Part shown: one piece after another, positions 1,870-17,825 of the stretch
How the letters are laid out: every line of letters begins with the position of its first letter
Numbering within the stretch: position 1 is the stretch's first letter
NCBI RefSeq assembly: GCF_030389965.1
Contig: NZ_CP128399.1
Span: 2,670,799-2,702,798, forward strand
DNA: 32,000 bases
DNA from: Candidatus Chlorohelix allophototropha
GTDB lineage: Bacteria; Chloroflexota; Chloroflexia; Chloroheliales; Chloroheliaceae
Direction of reading: 5' to 3'
The notes under the pieces: generated by a model
The model's database searches: none
The model's input: only the letters and a program-made list of their open reading frames with translations
What the model was told of the DNA's origin: nothing
Program-made: the position numbers and the translations under genes

Positions 1870-3774
1870 TTAAGCTTTAGTGGAAAGTGTTTTGGCTTTT
1901 GGTTCGAGACCCTTAATTATCTCAGGGATAGGCGTGTTATTCTTAAACTCGCCCAACGCCCAATCAGCCAATTGCTCCGCCCAACCGCTGCCCCGGTCGT
2001 CCTGCGCCACCAAACGTAAGGCGCGTTTTCCCAACGCAAGAGTGAGCGGATAAGCTGATTCCTCATTCCCGGTTTTGCATTTAGATTCTACCTTGATTGA
2101 AACCTCTAACACCTTTATAACAAAGCGGTCGTGCGCTTCAAACATCTTGCGGCGAGTATCGCCATAGCCTTTTACTAGCCTGCCGCTTTCCACCACCAAC
2201 ATTGCTAGTTCATAATCCAGCAAGGCAAATTTCTCTACATCGCGCGTGAAATTGCCTATTTGTTTCCACTCGCGGTTAGCGCGATGCGAAACCGGACGCA
2301 GAGGCTTGAACCAAGTCAGGAAAGCAAACGTTAGGTAACCGCTAAAAGTGTTGGGCTGTGGGTGTAATTGCAAGGTGAAATATTTCTTTTCAGCCCAAGT
2401 CCCAATCCCGGTGAGCTTACCTAACAATAGCATTGGGCTGACCAATGCGTTTGGAAATATCCCATAAATTTCAGGTGCATCCGGTTTCAGGTAATCAGTC
2501 AACACCAGCACTTGCCCATCCGCGACCTTCATCTCCTGCCGGATGCGGCTAAAGCGACCATGCTGAATTTTAAGGCTTGCCACCCGCACTGCATCCTCAT
2601 AAGTAGTACGCATAGACAGTACACGTGCGTAGGCTTCGGTAAGTTTCCATGCGTGAGTTTCACTATCCAGCTTAAAAACTCGCGCTACTTCTTTCAGATA
2701 GCGACGAGCGTAAGCTAAATTCTGGTAATCAGCGCACTGGTAAGCCGCTTCAATCAACGCCCAGTGCAGTTTTTCAGGGAATTGCGCCTGAATCTCCGCT
2801 GTCAAAGCGCGAAAATCAGCTTTCCATTTTAGCGGCAACTCGTTGCTGTGCCGTTCTATTAGTGCCGCTACATCTTTCTTTTCAGCCCGGTTGCCCGAAG
2901 AATGAGCGACAGGGATCAAGTTGATAGTGCGGCGCGGTTTGGCAGGAACAGGTTCACCGCTATCCGCCGCGCCATTAGCATTAAAGAGCGGTTTGGGAAG
3001 CGCGGCTAGCGAACGAGGCAAAGGGTCTTGTGCCGGTTCCGGTTTGGCTTGGGTAGCGTTAGCCTCACGTTGTAATTCTTCGATTTGATAGCTACGCCCA
3101 ACCTCAAAGGCTTTCAGGTTCATCTCCACCGCCAGTCCGAATTGTTGGATGGCGTTGCGATATGCCTCTACCGGGATTGGCAGCACACCGGGCAAAACCG
3201 ATAGTGCCCCTAACATAAGGGCGTTAGAGGAGAGGTCGCCCAAGCCATGCTGCCGGGCGATTTGCGGAACATCAATTATCGAATATGCTCCCGACATTTG
3301 CGCTACCGCTTCAACTATTTTTTCGGTGGGATAGCGCCCATCAAAAGCGGGCATTTTCTCGCTGGTAGTATAAAAACGCTGGCTATTGGCAACTACGGTC
3401 GTGCGCTTGCTGGCATAACCCTGTTGCACCAACCGCCCCAGTTCCAGCAATTCCTGACCAAGCAGCACATCCACCATGCCGGGGAAAGGGTGTTGCCCGA
3501 ATACTGCTTTCTCCAATTCGGCAATAGGATTCTCTATCTTGTTATTCTCCGGCAACGAGGCGATTTCCATGTAATAGCTGGTAGCCCCGCCACGTTGGGA
3601 AAGACCCGGCAGCGAAACCGACTGAGCGCGAAAACCGCTCAAATCGGCGGCAAGAAATAGCCATTCTACCAACACATTGCCGCCCTGCCCACCGATAGCC
3701 CCCACCAGAATCGTGGTAATCTGGATGGTGGGTTTATACCTTAAACGCTCTATTTGGGTTACATCCTGAAGCAT
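1870..3774 (-). CDS. iorB: Indolepyruvate:ferredoxin oxidoreductase beta-subunit-type protein (2-oxoacid oxidoreductase gamma domain) with a long C-terminal extension
   Basis: N-terminal 'VGAIGGQGGNVLVEWLFLAADLSGFRAQSVSLPGLSQRGGATSYYMEI' is the gamma/catalytic-adjacent domain; directly downstream of iorA. Confidence 0.85.
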   Translation of the reverse strand: MLQDVTQIERLRYKPTIQITTILVGAIGGQGGNVLVEWLFLAADLSGFRAQSVSLPGLSQRGGATSYYMEIASLPENNKIENPIAELEKAVFGQHPFPGMVDVLLGQELLELGRLVQQGYASKRTTVVANSQRFYTTSEKMPAFDGRYPTEKIVEAVAQMSGAYSIIDVPQIARQHGLGDLSSNALMLGALSVLPGVLPIPVEAYRNAIQQFGLAVEMNLKAFEVGRSYQIEELQREANATQAKPEPAQDPLPRSLAALPKPLFNANGAADSGEPVPAKPRRTINLIPVAHSSGNRAEKKDVAALIERHSNELPLKWKADFRALTAEIQAQFPEKLHWALIEAAYQCADYQNLAYARRYLKEVARVFKLDSETHAWKLTEAYARVLSMRTTYEDAVRVASLKIQHGRFSRIRQEMKVADGQVLVLTDYLKPDAPEIYGIFPNALVSPMLLLGKLTGIGTWAEKKYFTLQLHPQPNTFSGYLTFAFLTWFKPLRPVSHRANREWKQIGNFTRDVEKFALLDYELAMLVVESGRLVKGYGDTRRKMFEAHDRFVIKVLEVSIKVESKCKTGNEESAYPLTLALGKRALRLVAQDDRGSGWAEQLADWALGEFKNNTPIPEIIKGLEPKAKTLSTKA

Positions 3775-3798
3775 CTTATTTATCCTTCCTTATGAGCT

Positions 3799-5934
3799 TT
3801 ATACTTCTGCTCCAAAAACCAGCTTTATCAATTTCTGATTGACTTTCTGTTTGAGCCGTTCCAGCCGAGAAGGATTAGTGACCACTTTCGCCTCATAGAA
3901 GGAAGGACATAACACGGCGGCGTGTGCTACTTCTCCACACAAACCGCAACCGACACATGTATTGCTGATAGTAGCGATAGGGTCAGCGCGCAAGGGGTTG
4001 GGATTATCCTTTATGGTCAGTGAAGGGCAGCCGTTCACGCGAATACAGCTATGGTCGCCGGTACAAACCGCGTCATCTATCCCAAAACGCGATTGCTCAA
4101 CCCGCTTGCCCTCATCCAACCGCTCTTTCTTTTCCACCTTTTCGTGGCGTTGTCGCTCTAGCATACATTCGCCCACCGAGCGAATGACCTTTAACTCCGA
4201 TTCTTCGCTGGAGAAAGCCTTGTCCAGCACTTTTACCACTTCGCCCACTTTGTAGGGGTTTACCTCCACCACATTTTTAACCCCTGCCGCATGCAACGCC
4301 ATTTCAATGTCCATTGCTTTAAACTTTTCGTGACGGGCATTTTCTTCGGTGCCGGGGTTTTCCTGCTGTCCGGTCATAGAAGTCCAGCCGTTTTCAAAAA
4401 TAACCATTGTGGCATCTTGACTGTTAAAAGTGGCGTTGGCAATGCTGGTGGTTAGCCCGCTGTGCCAGAAAGTGCCATCTCCCAGAAATCCGACTGTTTT
4501 CTGCTCGGTCATTCGCGCCATTGCTCCGGCGCTGGCAAGCCCTGTGCCCATTCCGGTACAGGTATCGGTCATTTCAAAAGGCGCGTACATACCCATAATG
4601 TAACAGCCGATGTCTCCGGCATAATGCGGTAAGCCGTGCTTCTTCTCGGTCAATTTGAGAGCAGAAAAGATGGGACGCTCTGGGCAGCCAGTACAAAAGT
4701 GGGGCAAGCGTAAAGGCAAGCTATCTTCAAATACATTCGCCGCATCATGCAAGTGCTGTGCCAGTTCCGCAGCAATACCGGAGAAATACGTAGCGCCACC
4801 TGGATACACTTCTTTAGAAAGCCATGCAGTTACACTATTCAAAAGAACTGTCGGGGAATATTCCCCCGCTTCGGGCAATACGCCTTTGCCGAATATCTGC
4901 AAGTCGTGCAAGCGATGGCTCTGGGCAATCGCCCTGATTTGAGTTTCAAGGCTATCCGGCATGCCCTCTTCTACTATCAATACCTTTTCTTTATCGCGCA
5001 AAAACTCCACGATTTCTTCGGGAACCAGCGGGTGTATCACATTCAGGTTATAGATTGGGAAATTGCACTGCCCGGTATTATCGGCTTCGCCCAAAACCGT
5101 AAGCGTCCGCAGCAAGGTGTTATAAAGCATGCCCTGTGTAATAAAACCGATGCGTTCATTTTTGCCGGGGAAAAAGTCGTTCAGCTTATTCTCGCGGATA
5201 TAGCGACGGGCGGCAGGCATGCGCTCTTCAAATTTGCGTCTTTCCTGCACCTGACTATAAGGAGGTAAGGGGATTTTGGTCAGTTTATCTTCCCAGCGGG
5301 TTGCCTTGTGGTTCATATTGAACTGCGGAGTGGCATTATCTTCACAAACCAGCGAACCTTTCATGTTTCCAGTGCGAGTGCGGAAAAGATACATTGCGAT
5401 TGTGCCGCTCACTTCGCTCAACTCGAAGCCCTTTTTCACCATATCTGCCATAAGCTGAGAATCGGCACGGGGATCAATACATAAAAGACCCGATTTGTGA
5501 GCATAGGGTAAGGTCTTTTCGGCAACGCTAGTGCTGTTCAAACCATAATCTTCGCCTACGAACACCATTGCGCCCCCGATTAAGCCGGGTTGCGAAATAT
5601 GCGCCAGCGCGTCTGCACCTACGTTGTTGCCGACCACCTTCCAGTTTACGGCACCGCGCACGGGGTTATTGACCGAAGCCTGCAATAAAGCTGCTGCCGC
5701 TGCCTCATTTATCGAGCCTTCAACGTATACGCCGAGAGGTTTTAGAAATTCCTGATAACTGTCTGAAATTGCATCATAGAGGGAAGAGGTGGGCGCACCG
5801 GGGTAACCGCCGAGGTAACTAACACCGCTTTCAAGTAGCGCCTTTAGCACCACCACTGCCATGTCGCCCTTAAGCACCTGCCCCTTTCCGAAATTGAGTT
5901 GACGGAGGGTTTCAGTGGAAAAATTTCTGCCCAT
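3799..5934 (-). CDS. iorA: Indolepyruvate:ferredoxin oxidoreductase alpha subunit
   Basis: 'GDMAVVVLKALLESGVSYLGGYPGAPTSSLYDAI', TPP-binding 'HFCTGCPERPIFSAL...GDIGCYIMG...GFLGDGTFWHSG', C-terminal ferredoxin-like 'CTGDHSCIRVNGCPSL...CVGCGLCGEVAHAAVLCPSF'. Confidence 0.93.
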   Translation of the reverse strand: MGRNFSTETLRQLNFGKGQVLKGDMAVVVLKALLESGVSYLGGYPGAPTSSLYDAISDSYQEFLKPLGVYVEGSINEAAAAALLQASVNNPVRGAVNWKVVGNNVGADALAHISQPGLIGGAMVFVGEDYGLNSTSVAEKTLPYAHKSGLLCIDPRADSQLMADMVKKGFELSEVSGTIAMYLFRTRTGNMKGSLVCEDNATPQFNMNHKATRWEDKLTKIPLPPYSQVQERRKFEERMPAARRYIRENKLNDFFPGKNERIGFITQGMLYNTLLRTLTVLGEADNTGQCNFPIYNLNVIHPLVPEEIVEFLRDKEKVLIVEEGMPDSLETQIRAIAQSHRLHDLQIFGKGVLPEAGEYSPTVLLNSVTAWLSKEVYPGGATYFSGIAAELAQHLHDAANVFEDSLPLRLPHFCTGCPERPIFSALKLTEKKHGLPHYAGDIGCYIMGMYAPFEMTDTCTGMGTGLASAGAMARMTEQKTVGFLGDGTFWHSGLTTSIANATFNSQDATMVIFENGWTSMTGQQENPGTEENARHEKFKAMDIEMALHAAGVKNVVEVNPYKVGEVVKVLDKAFSSEESELKVIRSVGECMLERQRHEKVEKKERLDEGKRVEQSRFGIDDAVCTGDHSCIRVNGCPSLTIKDNPNPLRADPIATISNTCVGCGLCGEVAHAAVLCPSFYEAKVVTNPSRLERLKQKVNQKLIKLVFGAEV

Positions 5935-6025
5935 TTACACTACTCCTTGATTCTCTCAAGACCACCTTGTCATGAGATTGGGCGATAAACTTGTTAAGTA
6001 AATCTCCAGAAAATGTTGTATTATA

Positions 6026-6054
6026 TGAATAATACATTAATGCTTGTATGTCAA
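6026..6054 (-). promoter_or_regulatory. Sigma-70-like promoter for iorAB with overlapping dyads
   Basis: Minus-strand TTGACA (6054-6049), 17-nt spacer, TATTCA (6031-6026); about 85-90 nt upstream of the iorA ATG. Confidence 0.6.
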
Positions 6055-6180
6055 GCAACTTTCCGACAATCTGACAAGTGTTATAGATAAATTCTATGCA
6101 AAGCGTCGCCACTTGAGCCTATTTTGTTGCATAGTTAATAAGCGAATAGTAGCGTTAGAAGTTTTGTAGGGGGAATGGTA

Positions 6181-6813
6181 ATGGCTGATAATTTTAACGG
6201 TAAGGAAAAATATCAAAATGAATTAAAATGGGGGCGTATGCCCGAAAGCTGGAGAGTAGGCGCACGCGAAGATGCCGGAATCGAATCGGCAGGGCAACCA
6301 CCGCTTGACCAGTTAGATACTGCCATTGCACGTGCCCTCGAAAAGGATAGTCGGATTAGCTTGCTGGAATTATCGCGGCAGCTTGGCACTTCTCGCACCA
6401 CCATCTCGGAACGACTAAATCGGCTGATTGAGCAAGGTGTCATCAAAGGTTTTCATGCTCGACTGGATTACCGAAGGCTTGGCTACCCGATAATTGCTTT
6501 TGTAGGGTTACAAACTTCGCAATCGCAAAAAGCGGTAGAAGTAATCGAGGCGTTAAAGCAAATACCCGAAGTGGAAGAACTGCACACTGTTACCGGGCAA
6601 ATCGATATGCTGGTTAAGTTGCGTGCGCGAAGCACCGAACATTTGCAGCACATCCTGATCTTCAAAATCCAATCTATCCCCGGCATCGGGCGCGGCGAGA
6701 CCATGCTGGCGCTTTCTTCACACCAAGAATGGGCGCCTATCGGTATCGCCCGTCAGCCTGAAACCGATATGAACGGCACAGAGTTTGTCTCGGATGAGGA
6801 AGCCGCGAAATAA
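6181..6813 (+). CDS. Lrp/AsnC family transcriptional regulator (N-terminal HTH, C-terminal RAM/ligand domain)
   Basis: 'LDTAIARALEKDSRISLLELSRQLGTSRTTISERLNRLIEQGVIKGFHARLDYRRLGY' plus 'EVEELHTVTGQIDMLVKLRARSTEHLQHIL'; GGGGG Shine-Dalgarno better placed for ATG at 6181 than 6175. Confidence 0.92.
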   Translation: MADNFNGKEKYQNELKWGRMPESWRVGAREDAGIESAGQPPLDQLDTAIARALEKDSRISLLELSRQLGTSRTTISERLNRLIEQGVIKGFHARLDYRRLGYPIIAFVGLQTSQSQKAVEVIEALKQIPEVEELHTVTGQIDMLVKLRARSTEHLQHILIFKIQSIPGIGRGETMLALSSHQEWAPIGIARQPETDMNGTEFVSDEEAAK

Positions 6814-6821
6814 CGGGATAT

Positions 6822-7301
6822 TCAATCTTTAAGAGTCTGCAATAACCGGGCAGCCTCTTCCCTGATTCCAGAGTCAATGTGGGTTCGAGCCATCTTTAGC
6901 GGCGCAATGGCGCGCCTATCTCCCATACGCCCCAATGCAATAGCTGCATCGTAATAAGCCCCATCTGCCGGGTCATGCAAGACCGCCAGAAGTGCGGATG
7001 AAGCATGCACATCCGCAATCTGCCCCAACGCCCACACCACAACCCGGCGTGGAGCAGTATCATGCTTATCCACGCTAGTCAGCAATTTCACCAGATAACT
7101 TACTGCCAGCGGGTCACCAATCTGACCGAGCGCCGCCGCCGCAGTAAAGCGCACATTCGGTACACTATCTTTCAGCAACTCGATGAGATACGAAACGGCG
7201 CGCTCATCCCGCATCCGTCCAAGGGCAGAGGCGGCTTGTCGGCGCTTTTCAGGGTCATAGTCGTGCAAAGAACTTATAAGAGTGTCAAATTGATCGTTCA
7301 T
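6822..7301 (-). CDS. HEAT/PBS-lyase-repeat protein
   Basis: Repeats 'KRRQAASALGRMRDERAVSYLIELLKDSVPNVRFTAAAALGQIGDPLAVSYLVKLL...RRVVVWALGQI'. Confidence 0.85.
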   Translation of the reverse strand: MNDQFDTLISSLHDYDPEKRRQAASALGRMRDERAVSYLIELLKDSVPNVRFTAAAALGQIGDPLAVSYLVKLLTSVDKHDTAPRRVVVWALGQIADVHASSALLAVLHDPADGAYYDAAIALGRMGDRRAIAPLKMARTHIDSGIREEAARLLQTLKD

Positions 7302-7409
7302 AGGATAGCTGCCAGTATTAGAAACCTTGTAGTGTTTTTAAAGTTAGGTCAATTTTATAGCGATTCGAGGTTTTTATCAATCCTTTTAAAGGAAGAGGCT
7401 GAAGGAATT

Positions 7410-7898
7410 TCAGGGAAGGTGCTCTTGCTCGATTTCTACGCCCAGATAGCGGGTTTCTAGCGAGTCGGAGGAAATATCATCCCAAAAGCGATCTTTCAAA
7501 TAGGTGGGATAGACCGGGAGGTTTACTAATTCGTGGGCATGGAACCAACGGGTGTGCCTTTCCAATTGTTGCGGGTCGGTAACATCTGCAATAGTGGTGG
7601 CGCTCAGTTCACCCGTAAAGCGGCTGATTAGAAAAGCTAACTCAAGATGGTGGCGATGGCGGCTTGGTTCAATAAATTCTCTGAAATATAAAAGCCGACC
7701 TTCGGTTTCTACTTCAAGCCCTGTTTCTTCTCGAAATTCTCGGCGCAACGCCTCAAAAACCGATTTGTCCTGTGATTCTTGCCCACCGCCCGGTAATGTC
7801 CAGAATTCTTCGTGGCTATCGGGAGTATGCTCGTGTACCAGCAAAAGCCTGTTCGCCGCATCAAGCATGACTCCGGCTACTCTGATACGATAATTCAA
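7410..7898 (-). CDS. Nudix hydrolase
   Basis: Nudix box 'GGGQESQDKSVFEALRREFREETGLEVETEG'; overlaps the upstream gene stop by 4 nt. Confidence 0.92.
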   Translation of the reverse strand: MNYRIRVAGVMLDAANRLLLVHEHTPDSHEEFWTLPGGGQESQDKSVFEALRREFREETGLEVETEGRLLYFREFIEPSRHRHHLELAFLISRFTGELSATTIADVTDPQQLERHTRWFHAHELVNLPVYPTYLKDRFWDDISSDSLETRYLGVEIEQEHLP

Positions 7899-9373
7899 TT
7901 GAACTCCAACTCCTTATCCTGAGTGTAGTTCAAACCCAGCTTTAGCGCAATTTCCGCTTTCTGCAACTCGCGCCCCAAATAGCTGTAATGCTCTTCCAGC
8001 GAAGCCAATTTTTCGTGGGCAATCAATAGGCAAAGCTGACGGGCAGTTTTCCCCTCAAAATAATAGGGTGTATTACCTTCGATGGTGCTATGCTGCACCT
8101 TAATCAAACTCCGTTCGCGTTCAAGCTCGATGATAAAATAACCACGCGGGTCGCTACGCCAATCTAAGCGGCGTTTCTTGAAAGAGTCGATGGTATCGAG
8201 CGCGAATTTCCACTTATCGGCATAAATATGTGCCGAGTGTGAAATGATGGTAAGCGCACCAAGCCTCAAGCCCGTGTCGTCCGCGATTTCCTTTTGCAGT
8301 TTGCGCAAGGCATAGGTATTTTGTGCCCACGCGGTGTAAATATCGTGACTACGGAAACGGGCGGTCATATAAAGTGCGCCATCCTGTACCCCTGCCGAAA
8401 CTTCCAGCAAACAGGGCGGGTTATCACCCACGCTATCCTGTTCGACATCCCACGTCACCGCCACGGCGCGGCGGGTATGGTGCGCCTCGCGCAAACGCTC
8501 TTTCATCCGCGCAATTTGGTCGTGACCTTCCTCACCGAATGAACGCAGCCGTTCTCCATAGGTATAGGCTATTCCGGGTTCTTTCTCCGCGCTCAGGATT
8601 TTGGGATAGTAATTTTCTAGTTCGGCGCGACTAAAAGGCAAGTAATCAGCCCAAACGATGTCATCAGGGTTTTCATCGGTGATTACCGCTACCGTATTGT
8701 AAATCTCGCGCTGTTGCTGAGAATACTCAGTAGGCTTGATTTGCCCGAAGCGCATCACCAATTGCATTACTTCCAGCCATGTTTCGGCAACAGTTTCGCC
8801 CTGTACCCGAAATCCGGTGCGTTCGCTGGGTAGCGCCTTGCCGCCTTCTGGGGCAAGTTCGGGGAAAGTGCGAGGTTCGGCAAAAGGAGGAAGCGTAGCC
8901 AACTTAGCCAGTTCTAGCTTGATTTGCTCGGCAATTGCTTCGGGGTTTTTAGGATAGCCTTTAGCCGGACGCAAGTCAATGAGTTGCACCTGTTGGCGCA
9001 ATTCCTCCCACGCTTCGAGGGGAATACCTTCATCCAGTTTAGCCTGTGTGCCGGGAATAGTATGGTTCGCGCCAAGCCCTTTGGCAAAAAAGCTTGCCAA
9101 CGCTTCCCCGGTAGAGGATTGGTCAGCGCCACAAAGTATAAGGTAGCGTATTTGGGGAAACATGAAGATATTACGCGCCATCAGGTTGATACCCGCAAAG
9201 CTGTAAAGGTTGGCGCAGATGAAATAATCCGCAGTATCCAGTTTTTGGGCTATCAGATGACGCTGAGTCCAGAGGGTGCAAATGCCCACATTAGATTCAG
9301 GGTTGCCGATTTGGAGGTCTTTATAACTTATAAGATCGGTCAAATTATAAGTTGCGCCAAGTTCTGCGGTCAT
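7895..9373 (-). CDS. Thymidylate-synthase-like protein with N-terminal MtrA-like (tetrahydromethanopterin S-methyltransferase subunit A) domain
   Basis: N-terminal 'GNPESNVGICTLWTQRHLIAQKL...YLILCGADQSSTGEAL'; C-terminal 'QDGALYMTARFRSHDIYTAWAQNTYALRKLQKEIADDTGLRLGALTIISHSAHIY' is ThyA-like (R-S-x-D...N...G.L...S.H.Y). Confidence 0.8.
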   Translation of the reverse strand: MTAELGATYNLTDLISYKDLQIGNPESNVGICTLWTQRHLIAQKLDTADYFICANLYSFAGINLMARNIFMFPQIRYLILCGADQSSTGEALASFFAKGLGANHTIPGTQAKLDEGIPLEAWEELRQQVQLIDLRPAKGYPKNPEAIAEQIKLELAKLATLPPFAEPRTFPELAPEGGKALPSERTGFRVQGETVAETWLEVMQLVMRFGQIKPTEYSQQQREIYNTVAVITDENPDDIVWADYLPFSRAELENYYPKILSAEKEPGIAYTYGERLRSFGEEGHDQIARMKERLREAHHTRRAVAVTWDVEQDSVGDNPPCLLEVSAGVQDGALYMTARFRSHDIYTAWAQNTYALRKLQKEIADDTGLRLGALTIISHSAHIYADKWKFALDTIDSFKKRRLDWRSDPRGYFIIELERERSLIKVQHSTIEGNTPYYFEGKTARQLCLLIAHEKLASLEEHYSYLGRELQKAEIALKLGLNYTQDKELEFN

Positions 9374-9395
9374 TTATTGCTATCCCAAAGCTTTG

Positions 9396-10463
9396 TTAAT
9401 TATATTTTGTAGTTGGAAGATGAGGACCAATATATCCAATTATAATTTTACTTTCTGTAGTGGTTTGATATGGATAAAAATGCAATCTCCAAGCATTTTG
9501 TGGGAGTGAACAATGCCATTCAAACGTTCTAGTTTGACCATCGGGACAAACAAAAGTTCGTTTAGACGCATATTCTGCATTATTCATTGTAGACTCGCTT
9601 TCCTTTCGAGGTTCTCCACTTACTTGTGAAAAATCAAATGATCCTCGAGTCCGAGTACATGCTACCCTTTCAAGCTCTAATAATCGTTTTTTTATTGATC
9701 CAACCAGCTGATTTCCGTTAAGTAAGCCTTTTAGAGCATTACCAACTGAATCACAAAAATCTAATGATGGGAAAAATTCGTGTATGTTATCCCATAAATC
9801 TTTACCGTTATTAATCTTATCCAGCCGTTCAGCTTGTTCGGATGGAAGGTCGGTAGGTGAGAAAATTAGTGGGAATTTTTCCCGGATAATTTTGTCTGTA
9901 GGTAATTGTATATTTGGATCGATGGTTTCAATTTCTACCTCTATGTCAAGATGAGTAGAAACAGAAGTTAATTTTAATGTTGCTATATTTAATCCTATAC
10001 CAAAACTATGTTGGTGAAATTTACAGGCTGTTGCAGTTGTTAATAACTCACCAATTCGCTTTTTATTTTCTTCAAGAATTTGTCTAAAAATAAATTCATT
10101 TGGCAAAATTTCAATTGTTTTATGTATGGCTAAATGCCCTAAGGCATCAAATTTATTTTCTATGTCACCAATAATGGACTCTTCATCATTATTTTTATCC
10201 CTAAAAAACTGATTCAATTTTTGTGTAATCGATATAATTCTTTTGCTATTAATCCCATATCTTCTAAAATCTTCAAACATAGGGAATTTTTGATTATTTA
10301 TAAGATTGTATGTACATTTCGTGGAATGGAACCATTTATATGGCGAATTTGTGGCTTCAATAAGCCATGCCTCAAGAGCATCTACCCATTCTTCAACTGT
10401 AATTTTTTCAGCAGTATCAGAGGGTAATGTCAAAATATGAGGGTCAATAAGAAAACTTATCAA
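9396..10463 (-). CDS. Hypothetical protein, partner of downstream-encoded-first AAA ATPase; putative effector
   Basis: 355 aa ORF; TTG start (10463) overlaps the ATPase stop (TTGA) and is preceded by GGAGG, indicating translational coupling; no family recognised; C-terminal '...TFEWHCSLPQNAWRLHFYPYQTTTESKIIIGYIGPHLPTT'. Confidence 0.75.
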   Translation of the reverse strand: MISFLIDPHILTLPSDTAEKITVEEWVDALEAWLIEATNSPYKWFHSTKCTYNLINNQKFPMFEDFRRYGINSKRIISITQKLNQFFRDKNNDEESIIGDIENKFDALGHLAIHKTIEILPNEFIFRQILEENKKRIGELLTTATACKFHQHSFGIGLNIATLKLTSVSTHLDIEVEIETIDPNIQLPTDKIIREKFPLIFSPTDLPSEQAERLDKINNGKDLWDNIHEFFPSLDFCDSVGNALKGLLNGNQLVGSIKKRLLELERVACTRTRGSFDFSQVSGEPRKESESTMNNAEYASKRTFVCPDGQTRTFEWHCSLPQNAWRLHFYPYQTTTESKIIIGYIGPHLPTTKYN

Positions 10464-12334
10464 GACCTACCCTCCACTCGACTAATAATACTCTCTGATG
10501 TAATGATGCTTTCTTGAATTAAGGTTTCATCAAAGAACCCTTCAGGCCAGTTTTCGATAGCGCCATCTGATGAAATTTGGATTTTTTCAAAAGTGGTAGA
10601 GCCTGAGTCATCTTGCTTGGCAAAATATATAACGCAGTCACTTTTTTCCTGACCACCCGCTTGGACAATATGTAAACGAAGTTGGTTAATTAGGTTTTCA
10701 CTATGAGTTTCAACCAAACATTGTTTGCCACACTTAACCAATCCCACTAGAAAATCTCCTAATCTTGATTGTACTCTAGGATGCAAGTGGAGTTCCGGTT
10801 GTTCTACAATTAATAGTGTTCCTTTTGGGGCTAATAAACCCATTACCAGAATTGGGAGTATTTGGCTTACACCTACGCCAACTGCAGTTAGAGGCAAAGG
10901 GGCATTACCTTGCTTTGGAATAATTTGCCAAATTACGCCAGTTTGTCCTGCAACCTCAATTTGGACGCGCTCTCCGACATTTAAATACTTAACCCAATTA
11001 TCCAATGCATTTTTTAATTTATCCTTGTTTATATGTGATTCATAAGGATTATAATACTCTACAAAGTTATTTTGATTCGTATCATAAACATAGGCTGCAT
11101 ATTCTCCTCTGATACCAACATCATCAACTTCACTGCTTGGAGAAAATCTTTGCGCAGCTTGGGGATCTGCACGTAATGGACCTAAATAGCGAATTCGTCG
11201 TGTGAAATATTTGGCGATGTAATCTGATATTCGCTGCCATACTTCTAATTCAGGATTTTCAAAGGAAATTATTTCAATTCCCTCATCACTGCTATTAGGA
11301 AGTTCTTCATGTTTTAAGTATTCTTCGGTTATTAACGCTAGTATTAATCTATAGGCTGAAATAGTATTCCTTCTAAGGTGTAAGAGTTGTATTTTTTGGA
11401 GCCACTTGAATAAATCAAGTAATTTATCTCCTTCAAAGGAGGGGCTTATTTCAAGTTTATTCAACAAATCAAAGAAGTTTTGTTTGAAGTCTGAATCAAG
11501 CTCGATATCTTGAATCTCTTTATTTAAGGCAGTTGATCGCGTTGTTTTAGGAAAAGAAGTCATTTCTCTTAAATTCACTCTTCTCTCGAATAAATCAGAA
11601 AAGTATCTTTCATACTCTCTTTTTTTACGTTCTACCAACGAGTATTTTCCATAAAATCTTCTCGGGATAAAATGAGAAAGAGAAACTAAATATTCTTTCT
11701 TTTGTCCACCTTTATCAACTTTTACGAAGTAAGTTTTGTCGTCATCACCAAACAAGGATTTATAAATATTGTCTGGGATAACATTCGAAAAAAAAGTTCC
11801 CCTTAGTGTTTGATCCATTTCGGCAATATTTAATTGGTGCAGATTTTTAGGATTATTTTCTTCCGGGAAAAGCTCCATTTGATATAGCAACGATCTAGTT
11901 TCTAATTTTATAGATTTAAGAGATATTTTTGAAGCTTGATCACTTGAAACAGTTTGTTTATTTGGGATTAAACCACTAAATTTAGCGGAAACCTTTACAG
12001 TATCATTCAATGATTCTCTGGGTTTTCGCGAGGGAGCTCGGTCTATTGGTACTATTTGATCTAAATCCAATTCAAAATCAAGCTCGATAGTTTTATTTCT
12101 TGATTTGTTTTTTAATATATCCTTAAATTGACCAAGTTGAAGAAATAATCCATTAATTATCAACGGGCGATCAGCAATTGGGTTACTCAGTGTTTGAGCA
12201 ACCATCAAGATTGACTGTAGAATACTACTTTTCCCTGAGCTATTCTGTCCCGATAGCACAGTAAGCCCTGCTAATTCAAGCTCACCTGAGTCATCTATTG
12301 GTTTAAAACGTTTTATTCTCCACATCTTTAGCAT
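10460..12334 (-). CDS. AAA family ATPase (OLD/SMC-like, DUF3696-like C-terminus)
   Basis: Walker A 'GLTVLSGQNSSGKSSILQSILMV', signature-like 'TAVGVGVSQILPILVMGLLA', Walker B 'GTLLIVEQPELHLHPRVQSRLGDFLV', H-loop 'CLVETHSENLINQLRLHI', tail 'DGAIENWPEGFFDETL'; no TOPRIM motif seen. Confidence 0.88.
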   Translation of the reverse strand: MLKMWRIKRFKPIDDSGELELAGLTVLSGQNSSGKSSILQSILMVAQTLSNPIADRPLIINGLFLQLGQFKDILKNKSRNKTIELDFELDLDQIVPIDRAPSRKPRESLNDTVKVSAKFSGLIPNKQTVSSDQASKISLKSIKLETRSLLYQMELFPEENNPKNLHQLNIAEMDQTLRGTFFSNVIPDNIYKSLFGDDDKTYFVKVDKGGQKKEYLVSLSHFIPRRFYGKYSLVERKKREYERYFSDLFERRVNLREMTSFPKTTRSTALNKEIQDIELDSDFKQNFFDLLNKLEISPSFEGDKLLDLFKWLQKIQLLHLRRNTISAYRLILALITEEYLKHEELPNSSDEGIEIISFENPELEVWQRISDYIAKYFTRRIRYLGPLRADPQAAQRFSPSSEVDDVGIRGEYAAYVYDTNQNNFVEYYNPYESHINKDKLKNALDNWVKYLNVGERVQIEVAGQTGVIWQIIPKQGNAPLPLTAVGVGVSQILPILVMGLLAPKGTLLIVEQPELHLHPRVQSRLGDFLVGLVKCGKQCLVETHSENLINQLRLHIVQAGGQEKSDCVIYFAKQDDSGSTTFEKIQISSDGAIENWPEGFFDETLIQESIITSESIISRVEGRS

Positions 12335-12425
12335 AAATCAACCTGCCTTACTTGTTATAAATTATAAAAATTTCTTAACATTTGGATTTTTCAGTGCAAA
12401 AATAAGTTTAGAGCAATTCTGAAAA

Positions 12426-12587
12426 CTAGAGCGCAAAGAAGGTTAAATAAGTCGCGTTTGTAACAAGCAAGTCATTACAATGTAAATATTCACTTCCAAA
12501 TTTTGTAGATTCAGAACTGCCGATTTGTAGGTCTTTAAAACTGATAAGGTCGGTAATGTTAAAAGCTGCGTCAAGCTCTGCGGTCAT
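12426..12587 (-). pseudogene. Truncated, diverged copy of the 5' end of the thymidylate-synthase-like gene (first 27 codons homologous, then unrelated sequence to TAG)
   Basis: Minus-strand translation MTAELDAAFNITDLISFKDLQIGSSES... versus MTAELGATYNLTDLISYKDLQIGNPES... of the intact gene; 67/81 nt identical by hand alignment; GGGAGG Shine-Dalgarno upstream. Confidence 0.85.
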
Positions 12588-12743
12588 TTATAACTACCTC
12601 CCTGAAAACGACTAATCCACAAATTTGTGTGGTTATCCACAACTGCTAGGCACAAGGCATTAAAAAATTACTATATATTGTGGATAACTTAGAAGGTCTA
12701 ACATGTTTTACCATAATGAGCGGGATATGTCAATATAATTCAG

Positions 12744-12819: not shown

Positions 12820-12907
12820 ATGCTACAGAATTTTCACTATCGTGCAAATTTCGTTGTATGTTGTGAGAAAAGACTCAAGCAGCTATATTTGCTCTGAGGT
12901 AGTACAA

Positions 12908-13177
12908 ATGCTCCCGCGTTCAATGTTCTTTACGCTTTACGGGGTTTATATCCGGCATTTTGGTGAAGAAATCCGCATGGGCAGCCTGATAAGATTGCTG
13001 GCAAAGGATTGGCGCGGCGGTGAAGCTTTTGACCTTTTCCGGCGCTATGACGGTTTGTTAGCTGAAGGAGCAGGACGTTATTTTTATCGGCTTTATACGC
13101 CTGATGTTTCAGCCGCCCTCGATGAAAAAGCTATTAGAGGGTTACGCGCTCAGCTTGACCCTTTCAGCGTTAGTTGA
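12908..13177 (+). pseudogene. Short PaaX-like ORF (89 aa), apparently internally deleted transcriptional regulator remnant
   Basis: 'MFFTLYGVYIRHFGEEIRMGSLIRLLA' resembles the PaaX N-terminus and 'LLAKDWRGGEAFDLFRRYDGLLAEGAGRYFYRLY' resembles its C-terminus; the full protein should be about 250-300 aa; gAGG ribosome-binding site 8 nt before the ATG. Confidence 0.55.
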
Positions 13178-13195
13178 AAATATGACAAAAGTGAG

Positions 13196-14539
13196 ATGAA
13201 TAGAATGTATTTCAACGCCGAAATAGAAACTATGCCCCGCGATGAGTTGCGGAAATTGCAACTGGAACGCCTTAAACAAACGCTTGGCTATGCTTATACA
13301 AAAGTGGCTTTCCATCAGCACCAGTTTCAACAAGCCAATGTTACGCCTGATTCGTTGCATACGCTGGAAGATTTGAACAAATTCCCCTTCATAACCAAAC
13401 CACAATTGCGAGAAAATTACCCGTTCGGGCTGTTCGCGGTCAAGCCCAACGATAAGGATAAAATAGTGCGTCTGCACGCTTCCAGCGGCACAAAAGGCAA
13501 ACCGACAGTAGTGGGTTACACCGCCCACGATATAGAAGTATGGGCGGAGAGTTGCGCCCGCGCAATCGCCTGCGCGGGAGGCAAACCCGGTGATGTGTTG
13601 CATGTGGCATATGGCTACGGGCTTTTCACGGGCGGGTTAGGCTTGCACTACGGAGGCGAGAAACTCGGCGCGTGTGTGATACCCGCATCTGGAGGCAATA
13701 CGCCACGTCAGATATTATTGATGCAAGATTTTCAAGCGCAAGGGCTGTGCTGTACCCCTAGTTATGCCTTGAATCTGGCAGAATATCTCAAAGAGCATAA
13801 TATCCCGTTGGAAAGTCTGAATCTCAAGTACGGTATTTTGGGTGCAGAACCCTGGACTGAGGAAATTCGGGTCAAGGTTGAGGAGGGCTTGGGCTTGATT
13901 GCGCTGGACATCTACGGGTTGAGCGAAATCACCGGACCGGGCGTATCAATGGAATGTCCGTACAAACAGGGCTTGCATATCTGGGAAGATTATTACCTAC
14001 CGGAAATAATAAACCCTGCTACCCTCGAACCCTTACCGGACGGTGAAATCGGCGAACTGGTCTTTACTACGCTGGCAAAAGAAGCCATCCCTATGATTCG
14101 TTACCGCACCGGCGACTTGTGTAACCTAACCTACGAAAAATGCGATTGCGGACGCACGCATGCCCGCATGGGCAAAATCAAAGGGCGCATAGATGACATG
14201 CTGATTGTGCGTGGCATCAATGTTTTCCCTTCCGAGATTGAGCGCGTGCTACTGGAATTTGAGGAACTCGCGCCACATTATCAGATTGTGCTGGAGCGCC
14301 CGGAAGTGCTGGATGTTGTGACGGTTCATTGCGAATCCACCACCGCCTTTACAGTGAGTGTCTTCGGAGATGCCGAGCATGACGAGGAACATCATCTTTT
14401 GAGCAGTTTGCGTCAACATATTATGTTGAAACTGAGAGAGGGTCTGGGAGTCAGTTTGCAGGTGAAAATCAACCCACCTCACACCATTCCCCGCAGCGAA
14501 GGCAAAGCGGTGCGCGTAGTGGATAATCGACCAAAATAA
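13196..14539 (+). CDS. paaK: Phenylacetate-CoA ligase
   Basis: 'VRLHASSGTKGKPTVVGYTAHDIEVWAE...YGLFTGGLGLHYGGEKLG...GLSEITGPGVSMEC...RYRTGDL...GRIDDMLIVRGINVFPSEIE'. Confidence 0.95.
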   Translation: MNRMYFNAEIETMPRDELRKLQLERLKQTLGYAYTKVAFHQHQFQQANVTPDSLHTLEDLNKFPFITKPQLRENYPFGLFAVKPNDKDKIVRLHASSGTKGKPTVVGYTAHDIEVWAESCARAIACAGGKPGDVLHVAYGYGLFTGGLGLHYGGEKLGACVIPASGGNTPRQILLMQDFQAQGLCCTPSYALNLAEYLKEHNIPLESLNLKYGILGAEPWTEEIRVKVEEGLGLIALDIYGLSEITGPGVSMECPYKQGLHIWEDYYLPEIINPATLEPLPDGEIGELVFTTLAKEAIPMIRYRTGDLCNLTYEKCDCGRTHARMGKIKGRIDDMLIVRGINVFPSEIERVLLEFEELAPHYQIVLERPEVLDVVTVHCESTTAFTVSVFGDAEHDEEHHLLSSLRQHIMLKLREGLGVSLQVKINPPHTIPRSEGKAVRVVDNRPK

Positions 14540-14571
14540 AATTCTTATAGCTAATAATCGTGAGGAAAAAC

Positions 14572-14880
14572 ATGGTTGTTATGGTAGCGCTGTACAAAGA
14601 ACCCGCCAACCGGGCAGAATTTGATAAATATTATTGGGAAACACATTTGCTGCTTGCCGGAAAAATCCCCGGCTTGTTAAAAAGTGAAGTATGCACCTTT
14701 TACGAACTAGAGGGCGGGGGTGAGCTTCCCTATTACCTAATGACCAAACTTTATTTTAACAGCAAGGAAGAAATGGCAGCCGCTTTCGCCACCCCTGAAG
14801 GACGCGCTACCGCCAAAGACCTGCGGAATTTCACCACACCGAGCAGTGTCACCATCACTTACGCCGAAGTTAAAGAATAA
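14572..14880 (+). CDS. EthD-domain (dimeric alpha/beta barrel) family protein
   Basis: 'MVVMVALYKEPANRAEFDKYYWETHLLLAGKIPGLLKSEV...PYYLMTKLYFNSKEEMAAAFATPEGRATAKDLRNF'. Confidence 0.8.
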   Translation: MVVMVALYKEPANRAEFDKYYWETHLLLAGKIPGLLKSEVCTFYELEGGGELPYYLMTKLYFNSKEEMAAAFATPEGRATAKDLRNFTTPSSVTITYAEVKE

Positions 14881-14896
14881 GAAAGGGTATGGATAA

Positions 14897-15673
14897 ATGG
14901 GCTTTGAGAATATTATCTATGCGAAAGTGGGAGTAGGTATCGCTAAGGTAACGCTGAATCGCCCCGAAGCGATTAACGCTTACACGCTGCTGATGCTAGG
15001 CGAGATGGCAGAGGCGTTTGCACAAGCCAAAGCCGATTCTGAAGTTCGCACCGTTATTCTGACCGGGGCAGGGCGTGGTTTCTGCGCAGGGGCTGACCTA
15101 CGCACCACCAGCACAATGGATTTTGAGAACGCACTACGTACCTATTATCGCCCTATGATTGAAGGCATTACCGGAATGGGTAAACCTGTAATCGCAATGG
15201 TAAACGGAGTAGCAGCGGGCGCGGGTATGTCCACCACTCTCGCTTGTGATTTCCGGGTAGCAGCTACTAACACACGCTTTGTAACCGCCTTCTCTAAAAT
15301 AGGGTTAGTGCCAGACGCGGGTATGTCATACCATCTACCGCGCCTTATCGGAATTGCCCGCGCTCAGGAAATGATTTCTCTGAACCGGGATGTGAGCGGG
15401 GAAGAAGCGGTATCAATAGGCTTAGCAACCAAAGTAGTAGCCCCTGAAGAACTTGAAAAAGCTACGCTGGAAATGGCGCACTCGCTGGCTAATACCACTA
15501 CGCTGGCTTTTGGCATAACTCGCCAGATGTTGCATAGCGCCTTGCAGATGACTCTGGATGAAGCGTTGGCACAGGAAGAAAAGAATCAGGCAATTGCCGG
15601 AGCGAGCGAAGATTTCAAAGAAGGGGTAGCCGCCTTTATGGAGAAACGCGCCCCAAATTTCAAAGGGAAGTAA
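14897..15673 (+). CDS. Enoyl-CoA hydratase/isomerase (PaaB/PaaG-like)
   Basis: Crotonase signatures 'TVILTGAGRGFCAGADL...IEGITGMGKPVIAMVNGVAAGAGMSTTLACDFRVAATNTRFVTAFSKIGLVPDAGMSYHLPRL'. Confidence 0.93.
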   Translation: MGFENIIYAKVGVGIAKVTLNRPEAINAYTLLMLGEMAEAFAQAKADSEVRTVILTGAGRGFCAGADLRTTSTMDFENALRTYYRPMIEGITGMGKPVIAMVNGVAAGAGMSTTLACDFRVAATNTRFVTAFSKIGLVPDAGMSYHLPRLIGIARAQEMISLNRDVSGEEAVSIGLATKVVAPEELEKATLEMAHSLANTTTLAFGITRQMLHSALQMTLDEALAQEEKNQAIAGASEDFKEGVAAFMEKRAPNFKGK

Positions 15674-15704
15674 TTTTTTGAAGTAGTTGTAAGGAGAAGT
15701 ACAA

Positions 15705-16523
15705 ATGGCAACCACTATTACTATGAGTGAAGCTGAGATTGAAGCGGCAATGCTGGCAAAAATCGAGAATGGCGAAAAGCTTGAGCCAAACGACCCGATG
15801 ACCGCCGAATACCGCGAGTTGCTGCTGAACCTGCTTACCATGCAAGCGGATAGCGAGCTTTCCGGCGGGTACGGCTATATCCCATGGATTAGCCAAGCGC
15901 CCACCATCGAGGAAAAATTGATTGTTGCCAATATTGTGCGGGACGAGATTTTGCATGGCAAACGCATGTATAAATTGCTGGAAGATTTGGGGGTAGAAGT
16001 CGATTCGCGTATCAGGGAAAACGATGAAGCTTTTCTGTATCGGCTGGACGATAACAGCGCCAACATCGGGACACAACGCGCCAAAACCGATAAGCGGGTT
16101 AACATCTTCTACTACCCGATTGAAACTTGGACTGATTTTATAATGTTCAATTTCTGCATGGATCGCGGAGCGGGTCACCAATTGCATGATGCGCTACATT
16201 GCAGCTACGCACCATGGGCGCGGGTCACCGAACAAATCTTCAAGGAAGAGGTAACACATGTGGCGCATGGCGAGAAGTGGGTAAAGAAATTGGCACAAGA
16301 CCCCGCAACCCGCGAGGAATGTCAGCAAACCTTTAACAAATGGTATCTGCGCACGATGAACATATTCGGGCGCGGTAACAGCCCCAAAAACGCGCTGTAT
16401 CGCAAATATCGCCTCAAGTTGCGCGATAACGATGAAGTGCGCGATACTTTTCATCGGGAAGTGGTTGAATTGGTTACAAAGTGGGGGCTGACCGTACCGG
16501 AATGGAAACCGGAGAATATATAA
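15705..16523 (+). CDS. PaaA/PaaC-like di-iron protein (phenylacetic acid catabolic protein family)
   Basis: Ferritin-like di-iron ligand pattern: 'QADSELSGG', 'VRDEILHGKRMYKLLEDLG' (ExxH), 'EQIFKEEVTHVAHGEKWV' (ExxH). Confidence 0.8.
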   Translation: MATTITMSEAEIEAAMLAKIENGEKLEPNDPMTAEYRELLLNLLTMQADSELSGGYGYIPWISQAPTIEEKLIVANIVRDEILHGKRMYKLLEDLGVEVDSRIRENDEAFLYRLDDNSANIGTQRAKTDKRVNIFYYPIETWTDFIMFNFCMDRGAGHQLHDALHCSYAPWARVTEQIFKEEVTHVAHGEKWVKKLAQDPATREECQQTFNKWYLRTMNIFGRGNSPKNALYRKYRLKLRDNDEVRDTFHREVVELVTKWGLTVPEWKPENI

Positions 16524-16566
16524 CGAGCGTTATATATTCAGCCGAGAAAAATAAGGGAAATAGGCG

Positions 16567-17766
16567 ATGGAAGAAGCGGTAATTGTCTCGGCAGTGCGCA
16601 CCCCTATTGGGCGGTATGGAGGCGCATTGGCAACAGTGCGCCCGGATAATTTGGGCGCAATCGTTATTGCCGAAGCAATCAGGCGCACAGGTATAGAAGC
16701 AAGCATGGTTGAAGATGTAATCTTCGGCTGTGCCAATCAGTCGGGCGAAGATAACCGCAACGTGGCACGTATGAGCCTTTTGCTGGCAGGCTTGCCCATT
16801 GAAACGGCGGGTGTAACGGTGAATCGTTTGTGCGGTAGCGGACTGCAAGCGGTAAACGATGCGGCACGTGCCATCAAAGTGGGCGAGGGCGAGGTACTAA
16901 TAGCTGGCGGAGTAGAGAGTATGACCCGCGCTCCTTTTGTAATGGCAAAACCCACCGAGGCATGGCAGCGGGGCAACCCAACTTTGCATGATACTACGCT
17001 CGGTTGGCGTTTCATCAATCCGCGCCTTTCCGAGATGTACTACCCTTACAACATGGGCGAAACCGCCGAAAACGTGGTGGACAAGTATAAAATCAGTCGA
17101 GAAGATCAGGATTTGTTCGCCTACAATTCGCAGAAGCGCGCCACCAATGCTATCGGTGAGGGAAAGTTCAAAGCAGAGATTGTTCCGGTGAAAGTGCCCC
17201 AACGCAAAGGCGAACCGTTTCTGTTTGATACGGACGAACACCCCCGCGCCGATACTACTTTGGAAGCTCTTGCAAAACTCAAACCCGCTTTCCGCAAGGA
17301 TGGAACTGTAACCGCCGGAAATAGTAGCGGCATCAATGATGGGGCTGCTGCGCTGGTGCTGATGTCCGGCAGCAAAGCAGCACAATTGGGTTTGAAACCT
17401 TTGGCGCGGATAGTGACATCAGCGGTGGCAGGGGTTGACCCGGCTACTATGGGGCTTGGACCTATTCCTGCCAGTCGCAAGGCGTTGCAACGCGCCGGGC
17501 TTACGGTAGCTGACTTAGATTTAATTGAGATTAACGAAGCCTTTGCTAGCCAAAGCCTCGCATGTATGCGCGAACTAGGACTCGACCCCGAAAAGGTGAA
17601 CGTGAACGGCGGCGCAATCGCGCTAGGGCACCCGCTTGGTTGTAGCGGGGCGCGCATGCTTACTACTCTTTTATACGAGATGGAACGGCGCGGCTCAAGA
17701 TATGGGCTGGCGACTATGTGCATCGGGGTAGGGCAGGGCATCGCAACTATCATAGAACGACTATAA
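16567..17766 (+). CDS. Acetyl-CoA acyltransferase (thiolase, PaaJ-like)
   Basis: '[33 protein letters not shown]...[14 protein letters not shown]...[24 protein letters not shown]...[16 protein letters not shown]'. Confidence 0.95.
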
Positions 17767-17792
17767 ACTCCCTTATCTCCTGCTTTTAAAAG

Positions 17793-17825
17793 ACCCTCGG
17801 CTTGTTATTTTACCGAGGGTTTTTA
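17793..17825 (+). terminator. Rho-independent terminator of the paa-type operon
   Basis: ACCCTCGG (17793-17800) / CCGAGGGT (17813-17820) followed by TTTT. Confidence 0.85.

Follow-up and report, generated by a model that had tools for sequence, protein, structure and literature searches.

The window analysed here is a stretch of 32,000 nucleotides from Candidatus Chlorohelix allophototropha, a member of the Chloroflexota (contig NZ_CP128399.1, positions 2,670,799 to 2,702,798), and positions given without further qualification refer to it. On its minus strand it holds two overlapping genes, one for an ABC ATPase and one for a smaller partner protein, which are related to NsnB and NsnC of the three-gene anti-phage system Menshen but come without the first Menshen gene, nsnA, and which we consider a candidate defence module in their own right. 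An earlier account made from the letters alone (the sequence-only reading) had proposed a 624-aa ATPase and a 355-aa partner here, and both open reading frames (ORFs) are indeed present and intact. The features of the locus are the following, L093 being a related metagenome contig.

9292..9382, no strand: proximal copy of a 91-nt direct repeat, one boundary of the insertion (repeat search, three-way alignment with L093)
9383..12596, no strand: the whole insertion, 3,214 bp, GC 0.343, with the pair as its sole genes (L093 alignment, composition)
9396..10463, minus strand: NsnC-like partner, 355 aa, a two-domain effector (ORF list, PADLOC)
10460..10475, minus strand: coupling signal, GGAGGG at 10470-10475 and then the TTGA start/stop overlap at 10460-10463 (sequence)
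10460..12334, minus strand: NsnB-like ABC ATPase of the "long" form, 624 aa, with a DUF3696 tail (ORF list, Pfam, PADLOC)
12506..12596, no strand: distal copy of the direct repeat, the other boundary of the insertion (repeat search, L093 alignment)

A two-gene insertion

The two genes are translationally coupled: in the TTGA at their junction, the TTG start codon of the partner overlaps the TGA stop codon of the ATPase, and this overlap and the GGAGG before it stand as the sequence-only reading had described them. The same type of junction is found at homologous loci, where the partner start minus the ATPase end comes to -7, -3, 0 and similar values. Also borne out are the claims that the pair is more AT-rich than its neighbours (GC 0.343 over 9383-12596 against 0.495 and 0.482 in the flanks) and that it lies inside an insertion. 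The metagenome contig L093 is about 88% identical to the window at the nucleotide level, and its orthologue of the neighbouring thymidylate-synthase-like gene is 92% identical; in it, the equivalents of window positions 12885-12508 and 9382-6822 are directly joined through one copy of the repeat, the single shared segment of the alignment being 89 nt long, where the window has two copies. Given this uninterrupted site, the window holds an insertion of 3,214 bp with exactly the two genes, and the pair has been acquired horizontally.

The repeat copies at the two boundaries are 82% identical; they duplicate, imperfectly, the 5' end of the neighbouring gene. The proximal copy covers the start codon and the first 27 or so codons of the intact thymidylate-synthase-like gene (7895..9373), while the distal copy, which follows the native upstream region, forms the beginning of an ORF fragment of 53 aa (12426..12587). 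In comparison with the uninterrupted site of L093, the copies differ in a mosaic manner, and the copy that arrived with the insert can thus not be assigned; probably, a version of the 5' end of the thymidylate-synthase-like gene was already part of the incoming DNA. Inside the insertion, the ORF list and repeat search revealed no integrase or att-type element, a tRNA scan no tRNA and a search of Rfam no family at E<=0.1; a promoter and terminator scan was uninformative, with promoter-like sites occurring at the rate expected by chance.

The thymidylate-synthase-like gene lies directly behind the stop codon of the partner and may therefore be transcribed by read-through from the pair; after the insertion, only a weak GGGA ribosome-binding site is left to it. 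The product of this gene (7895-9373, minus strand), whose 5' end was the site of the interruption, is an unusual fusion protein of 492 aa: an MtrA-like part at the N-terminus is joined to a thymidylate-synthase core of the archaeal type (TIGR03283 at 1.2e-48, just under the cut-off) and to a pterin-binding DUF4346 domain at the C-terminus. L093 further lacks a second block of the window, about 4.9 kb in size (12886-17817, compared with L093 3204-5397), with paaK, an enoyl-CoA hydratase-like ORF (recognized by eye only), paaA/C-like genes and a thiolase; L093 3204-5377 corresponds to window 19965-17818, and the match to window 12885-12508 follows almost directly after it. With two blocks missing from L093, the region upstream of the thymidylate-synthase-like gene appears as a site of repeated gain or loss. 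Just outside the insertion, at 12613-12687, there is a cluster of DnaA-box-like sites, consisting of perfect TTATCCACA matches at 12633-12641 (plus strand) and 12679-12687 (minus strand) and a one-mismatch site at 12613-12621; at up to one mismatch, the window has 16 such sites against 7.05 +/- 2.45 expected. The cluster coincides with the minimum of the cumulative GC skew (around 12-12.5 kb) and with a switch in gene strand. It might represent a region resembling a replication origin, or else a promoter through which DnaA regulates the thymidylate-synthase-like gene.

The ATPase and its partner protein

Menshen was reportedly described by Millman and colleagues in 2022. It is a three-gene anti-phage system in which NsnB is the ATPase and NsnC the effector (PMC12065111); its first gene, nsnA, encodes a protein with ParB-DUF262 and ParBDB domains, for which a role as the sensor of DNA has been proposed (PMC12065111; Li et al., NAR 2025). 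The PADLOC models, which the sequence-only reading had suggested running, assign the window ATPase to NsnB (1.6e-77), followed by HEC-03B (6.5e-52; from HEC-03, Hma-embedded candidate 03), PDC-M55A (4.3e-43) and AriA (1e-28), with weak matches to the GajA and Old models; the partner they assign to NsnC (7.8e-39 and 1.1e-36 for two models), the matches covering residues 210-354 only. In Pfam, the ATPase matches AAA_15 (1.7e-24), AAA_21 (4e-17) and DUF3696 (2.6e-11). The motifs and domains of the two proteins are located as follows.

12224..12250, minus strand: Walker A GQNSSGKSS, ATPase residues 29-37 (sequence)
11222..12112, minus strand: enlarged insert, ATPase residues 75-371 (BLASTP against canonical NsnB)
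10778..10816, minus strand: Walker B LLIVEQPELHLHP, ATPase residues 507-519 (sequence)
10694..10714, minus strand: H-loop VETHSEN, ATPase residues 541-547 (sequence)
10517..10645, minus strand: DUF3696 C-terminal tail, ATPase residues 564-606 (Pfam PF12476, 2.6e-11)
9834..10463, minus strand: N-terminal domain of the partner, residues 1-210, specific to the two-gene family (conservation)
9402..9824, minus strand: C-terminal effector domain of the partner, residues 214-354, of the canonical NsnC type (PADLOC, identity to protein P0123)

All four ATPase elements named by the sequence-only reading, the Walker A, Walker B and H-loop motifs and the DUF3696 tail, were thus confirmed, and across 59 homologues the residues G29, N31, S32, S33, G34, K35 and S37 of Walker A, E511, Q512, P513 and E514 of Walker B and E542, T543, H544, S545 and N547 of the H-loop are invariant. 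The Walker B motif carries E-Q where most ABC ATPases have D-E and where canonical NsnB has E-N (PMC12065111). An invariant Arg in the segment RYLGPLRAD replaces the Gln of the Q-loop, and GVG (in VGVGVSQ) replaces the SGG signature; the same oddities, Arg for the Q-loop Gln, GxG for SGG and a Glu followed by an amide residue in Walker B, have been described for NsnB (PMC12065111). Based on the published AlphaFold 3 models of the NsnB4-NsnC2 complex (PMC12065111), the DUF3696 tail is the predicted docking site for the N-terminal domain of the partner.

What sets the window ATPase apart is its size. In a BLASTP comparison with the 379-aa NsnB of locus L011, residues 1-74 align with residues 5-78 and residues 372-603 with residues 130-365, and between them 297 residues of the window protein stand opposite 51; the roughly 245 extra residues lie between the Walker A helix and the RYLGPLRAD segment. 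In the AlphaFold2 (AF2) model of the ATPase (predicted local distance difference test, pLDDT, 79.7; predicted template-modelling score, pTM, 0.80), the insert consists of beta strands (82-232) followed by helices (233-341); searched alone, it has no match in Pfam at E<=5. We propose that it may serve as a built-in sensor or as an oligomerization region. Against the NsnB model, canonical NsnB scores 414 bits in one stretch, whereas the long forms reach 233-260 bits (the window ATPase 260); six long forms were scored, and for five of them the match is divided in two.

With Foldseek, the best matches of the ATPase model in PDB are Rad50 and structural-maintenance-of-chromosomes (SMC) heads and the retron PtuA (E 4e-10 to 1e-7), and a sequence search of PDB gave no solved relative except a Walker A match to an overcoming-lysogenization-defect (OLD) nuclease. 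A Rad50/SMC-head-like fold among metabolic neighbours would also suit a housekeeping ATPase working in DNA repair or RNA turnover. We regard this as highly improbable, as the pair is absent from a relative of 88% nucleotide identity, has a GC content 15 points under that of the host flanks, is patchily distributed with different neighbours at every locus and is found on a plasmid and in phages; moreover, a coiled coil is missing, as is an Mre11 or kleisin partner.

The partner consists of two parts. As a whole, it has no match in Pfam or NCBIfam, and its N- and C-terminal domains, searched in isolation against Pfam, gave nothing at E<=5. The N-terminal domain has residues invariant across the two-gene loci (D7, P8, W26, W33, W44, P61, C147 and others) and is modelled by AF2 as alternating strands and helices (pLDDT 50-84). 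Its start, LIDPHIL with the invariant D7, resembles the first strand of PIN domains, while the other acidic residues of PIN domains are not conserved, which would fit an inactive PIN domain; a PIN-like fold is thus suspected. In canonical NsnC, the N-terminal domain is an inactive PIN (inPIN) domain; an hhalign comparison with the N-terminal domains of canonical NsnC gave no signal (P=0.21). We propose that this domain is an adaptor that binds the ATPase.

The C-terminal domain is modelled with a pLDDT above 90, and the best Foldseek matches of the partner in PDB are YoeB/ParE and RelE (target TM-scores 0.51-0.64, E 0.5-1.7). At least 90% of 49 homologues share E288, S289, R302, D308, R312, H317, R326 and H348, and 71% share H328; the window protein has all nine. 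The PB-BECR1 RNase domain of NsnC contains an H-R-H triad (PMC12065111), and from the motif pattern and the RelE/YoeB fold matches we infer that the effector of the window partner is of this kind. The sequence-only reading had thought of a new effector, an idea that does not survive: the C-terminal domain matches NsnC (7.8e-39) and is 48% identical to P0123, a canonical NsnC.

The N-terminal 210 or so residues are 30-43% identical to those of the nearest loci of the partner family that accompanies long ATPases (the long clade), whereas the C-terminal 140 or so residues are only 12-15% identical, and unrelated at the sequence level, to most C-terminal domains of that clade, which usually (48 of 54 loci) are of a type recognizable by GWRLHYWQI; between the two C-terminal types, hhalign gave a weak signal (P=0.006). 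The canonical effector was found on a long-clade N-terminal domain only in the window, at L001 and L089 among the loci and in the database protein P0122. The window partner is a chimera of a long-clade N-terminal domain and a canonical NsnC effector.

Distribution and genomic company

A homologue search with the ATPase gave 972 matches, and the top 120 of them are almost all 600-660 aa long and align end to end with 40-55% identity. A long ATPase gene that overlaps a gene of 351-355 aa was also seen in seven further assemblies, which stand for five distinct loci (L001-L009; from Chloroflexota, Ktedonobacteria among them) and have different housekeeping neighbours at each locus. In a scan of one genome per species of GTDB, 575 stretches encoded a relative of the ATPase, and 80 loci, species-level and from many phyla, were kept. 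Nearly all long ATPases in these are followed by an ORF of 316-362 aa, with a start-minus-end difference of -19 to +26 nt, most commonly -7 or -3. The sequence-only reading had made its proposal depend on the two genes being found together elsewhere, and they are: directly downstream of almost every long ATPase examined (54 pairs) there is a gene for about 350 aa, far above chance. The two proteins also co-evolve, the identity matrices of the ATPase and of the N-terminal domain of the partner being correlated across 54 loci (Mantel r=0.87, p=0.001). Among 1.84 billion representatives, a profile of the partner found 675 clusters at E<=1e-3 and 235 at <=1e-10, nearly all of 330-360 aa and matched in full length. 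In the actinobacterial loci (L068-L090), many ATPase genes have an ORF of 295-360 aa that overlaps or abuts their start on the upstream side (difference -3 or 0), and the downstream ORF of about 350 aa is often missing, a pattern that points to an inverted order of the genes, or to another partner, in these bacteria.

In none of these settings did we find the third gene of Menshen. Upstream of the window ATPase there is no nsnA but only the 91 nt, the 53-aa gene fragment and native intergenic DNA; no gene with PF03235 (DUF262) lies upstream at L001-L009; and a phmmer search with a genuine NsnA, that of L011, gave no match in the 80 loci. Of the 66 nearest upstream neighbours outside bacteriophage-exclusion (BREX) operons, a single one, encoded on the opposite strand, contains a GmrSD_N/DUF262 domain; apart from local synteny, no family occurs repeatedly among them. 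The genomic setting of P0123 shows the contrasting, complete arrangement: in the cyanobacterial locus L011, NsnA (416 aa, PF03235), NsnB (378 aa as called) and NsnC (317 aa) form an operon. Given that both window proteins match Menshen models, that the defining NsnA is missing and that the insertion has no mobility genes of its own, one could see in the pair a decayed, non-functional remnant of a three-gene operon that lost nsnA on transfer. We find this very unlikely. Both ORFs are as long as those of their homologues (the ATPase has 624 aa where the homologue has 626, and the partner has 355 aa in both) and have their catalytic and nucleotide-binding motifs intact. The NsnA-less arrangement recurs at 54 loci or more in many phyla, each time together with the enlarged ATPase, and the N-terminal domain of the partner belongs to a large family of its own with 675 clusters, which a single deletion event would not account for. 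The published survey of Menshen was seeded from NsnA (PMC12065111), and a form without NsnA could therefore not have been recovered by it.

The company the pair keeps varies. In the window, its neighbours are metabolic genes (a NUDIX gene, the thymidylate-synthase-like gene, paaK and other phenylacetate genes), and there it is thus an isolated islet and not part of a defence island. Elsewhere the check for defence islands, suggested by the sequence-only reading, turned out positive, with the pair occurring within BREX and adjacent to further defence genes, as well as in P2-like phages and on a plasmid. At about 13 of the 80 loci, it is located inside a type-3 BREX operon (full-length PADLOC matches) in the order BrxC-PglXI-[ATPase-partner]-(BrxHII)-PglZ-BrxA; other immediate upstream neighbours according to PADLOC include Cas1, a prokaryotic Argonaute (pAgo), a GmrSD-like protein (HEC-06), a reverse transcriptase and BrxC. 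Directly after the pair, BrxHII is cut to a fragment of 54 or 127 aa at L025 (8965-9129) and L041 (8971-9354), while L024 and L056 keep it in full length; in some BREX operons, the BrxHII helicase may have been displaced by the pair, or the pair may take over its role.

The repeated position between PglXI and PglZ, the BrxHII fragments beside the pair and the back-up effector role proposed for dyads of an OLD-type ABC ATPase and a nuclease (PMC12839542) would also be in line with an accessory effector layer that needs BREX or restriction-modification (R-M), in which case the window copy would be inert or would depend on an unlinked methylase. We think this improbable, because at approximately 65 of the 80 loci, among them all those of the closest clade, no methylase or BREX gene adjoins the pair, and the annotation of the plasmid copy does not show one in the region examined either.

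That plasmid is pAP1447-2, a conjugative plasmid of Acetobacter ascendens (L095, locus 1945-8602), and its pair, of 605 and 335 aa, lies near RelE/RelB genes and between two IS5-family transposase genes that share one protein accession and have opposite orientations; the arrangement looks like a composite transposon. Among Klebsiella phages, the ATPase has matches in 12 records, with identical coordinates in the top eight of those listed; one phage, Kp4861-1 (L096, locus 4001-6947; P2-like, Peduoviridae, unannotated), has a pair of 648 and 338 aa. Mobility of this kind raises the question of whether the pair is chiefly an addiction module of the toxin-antitoxin type, the ATPase neutralizing an RNase toxin that otherwise kills cells after segregation, with no specific role against phages. 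The resemblance of the effector to RelE/YoeB toxins, the tight coupling of the genes, the scattered positions among housekeeping genes in Chloroflexota, the plasmid copy between IS5 elements and near RelE/RelB and a "plasmid stabilization protein" gene, and even the Pfam label of AAA_21 ("putative AbiEii toxin, Type IV TA system") agree with that. The recurrent embedding in BREX and the Cas1, pAgo and GmrSD-like neighbours point to defence, however, and the related dyads HEC-03, PARIS and Septu are demonstrated defences. The roles in addiction and defence are not mutually exclusive. We hold the addiction explanation to be unlikely but the strongest of the rivals considered here.

Interpretation and relation to known systems

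We favour, with a probability of roughly 60%, the explanation that the pair is a self-contained, Menshen-related module of two genes for abortive infection, in which the ATPase acts as the sensor and gates an RNase. The core of what the sequence-only reading had proposed, a self-contained and translationally coupled defence-type module of an OLD/SMC-type ABC ATPase and a toxin-like partner, is thereby upheld. Building on homology, on the published NsnB4-NsnC2 models and on the structures of PARIS and Septu, we envisage that an oligomer of the ATPase would hold the partner inactive, with the DUF3696 tails predicted to clamp its N-terminal adaptor domain; the co-evolution of the two proteins gives indirect support to such a complex. 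The enlarged first insert of about 245 aa would detect a cue of infection in place of NsnA, by analogy with the ATPases of PARIS and the HEC-type dyads, which are thought to sense. Binding of nucleotide, or a conformational switch of the ATPase, would then release or activate the partner, and its RelE/YoeB-like (BECR) C-terminal domain, with His317, Arg326 and His348, is predicted to cleave RNA and arrest the infected cell.

Several observations weigh against this explanation. The pair is flanked by housekeeping genes, and not by a defence island, in the window and in its closest relatives, and in the literature searched, the long form without NsnA is neither named nor tested in any paper that we found. 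The matches to the RelE and YoeB folds are statistically non-significant (E 0.5-1.7), the suspected PIN-like domain at the N-terminus of the partner was modelled at a pLDDT of 50-84 and gave an hhalign P of 0.21 against the N-terminal domains of NsnC, and the sensor role of the insert is purely inferential for a segment that matches no Pfam family. Finally, the invariant E-Q of Walker B possibly means weak or no hydrolysis of ATP, making the switch mechanism uncertain; one may speculate that the ATPase is a binding switch instead of a fast hydrolase.

A bolder version of the argument is that, with the insert turning the ATPase into the sensor and NsnA dispensable, the pair constitutes a distinct and widespread two-gene defence system. 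Such a system would move between chromosomal sites, BREX operons, P2-like prophages and plasmids, and canonical Menshen would be its counterpart in exchanges of the RNase effector domain. This we put forward tentatively, at slightly less than even odds. The mechanism of Menshen is unsolved, and the published model places NsnA on top as the DNA sensor; a widespread family without NsnA and with a remodelled insert could provide a handle on the infection-sensing part and on how the ATPase gates the RNase, and the window partner clearly exemplifies how related defence systems exchange effector domains. There are also practical consequences, as catalogues of Menshen seeded from NsnA undercount modules of the NsnB/NsnC type. 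The Menshen rules of PADLOC and DefenseFinder require all three genes. Given this requirement and the lack of a PADLOC or Pfam model for the N-terminal family of the partner, current tools probably miss the family; a model of that domain would allow annotation tools to detect it.

Among the known pairs of an ATPase and an effector, PARIS (AriA/AriB), Septu (PtuA/PtuB) and Gabija (GajA/GajB) share with the window pair the principle of an OLD-type ABC ATPase oligomer that restrains a paired nuclease, the ATPase of PARIS being the sensor of the trigger, and the window ATPase has weak matches to AriA, GajA and Old and a fold match to the retron PtuA. They do not have the DUF3696 tail, and the RelE/YoeB-like effector of the window is unlike theirs. 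As the sequence-only reading had stated, neither window protein has a TOPRIM or HNH match in Pfam or PADLOC; membership in Gabija, PARIS and OLD was rejected for the lack of TOPRIM and that in Septu for the lack of HNH, the NCBIfam PtuA match (2.4e-06) covering the Walker A region and falling far below the cut-off. Dyads of an OLD-type ABC ATPase and a PIN endoRNase have been reported within BREX loci and read as back-up suicidal effectors (PMC12839542, NAR 2026). They resemble the arrangement at L024, L025, L041, L053 and L091, where an ABC ATPase and a small nuclease gene lie in BREX, but they are a category and not a defined family, and the window copy stands alone.

HEC-03 is closer. It combines an ABC ATPase with a PIN-domain protein; in E. 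coli it gives protection for which both genes are required, and its induction is toxic (bioRxiv 10.1101/2024.01.29.577857). Like the window pair, it is a two-gene dyad of an ABC ATPase and an effector, with no protein of its own for sensing; among the PADLOC models matching the window ATPase, that of its ATPase ranks second; and it is itself embedded in another defence system, as the pair is in BREX at some loci. Its host system is, however, Hma and not BREX, its ATPase profile has about 458 positions against the 624 aa of the window protein, and its partner has a PIN domain resembling VapC-family ribonucleases where the window effector has a C-terminal domain of the BECR type. The models of the HEC-03 partner matched neither the window partner at E<=0.1 nor the partners of L004, L020, L024, L038, L095 and L096; an identity with HEC-03 or PDC-M55 was dismissed, since the partner is unmatched and NsnB scores higher.

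The likeness to Menshen extends over both proteins. The best match of the window ATPase is NsnB, including the DUF3696 tail and the NsnB-type motif substitutions; the C-terminal domain of the partner matches the NsnC models and is 48% identical to the NsnC of the L011 operon; the genes come in the order B then C and overlap; the partner has the layout of a proposed N-terminal adaptor and a swappable C-terminal effector; and both systems are associated with BREX. The differences are that no NsnA (ParB-DUF262 with ParBDB) is present here or at any related locus examined, that the window ATPase has 624 aa instead of 378-379, with an insert larger by about 245 aa, and that the N-terminal domain of the partner has no detectable sequence similarity to those of canonical NsnC. 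The sequence-only reading had called the pair undescribed and accepted that a match to an already named system would count against it. Both proteins do match named Menshen models (NsnB 1.6e-77, NsnC 7.8e-39), and as far as they are concerned the description no longer holds; the match to Menshen thus counts half against it, and as NsnA, a defining feature of Menshen, is absent, we have not filed the pair under that name. New against the literature searched, and so far unnamed, are the NsnA-less architecture, the enlargement of the ATPase by about 245 aa and the N-terminal family of the partner. The nearest named system is Menshen when judged by sequence similarity and HEC-03 when judged by architecture.

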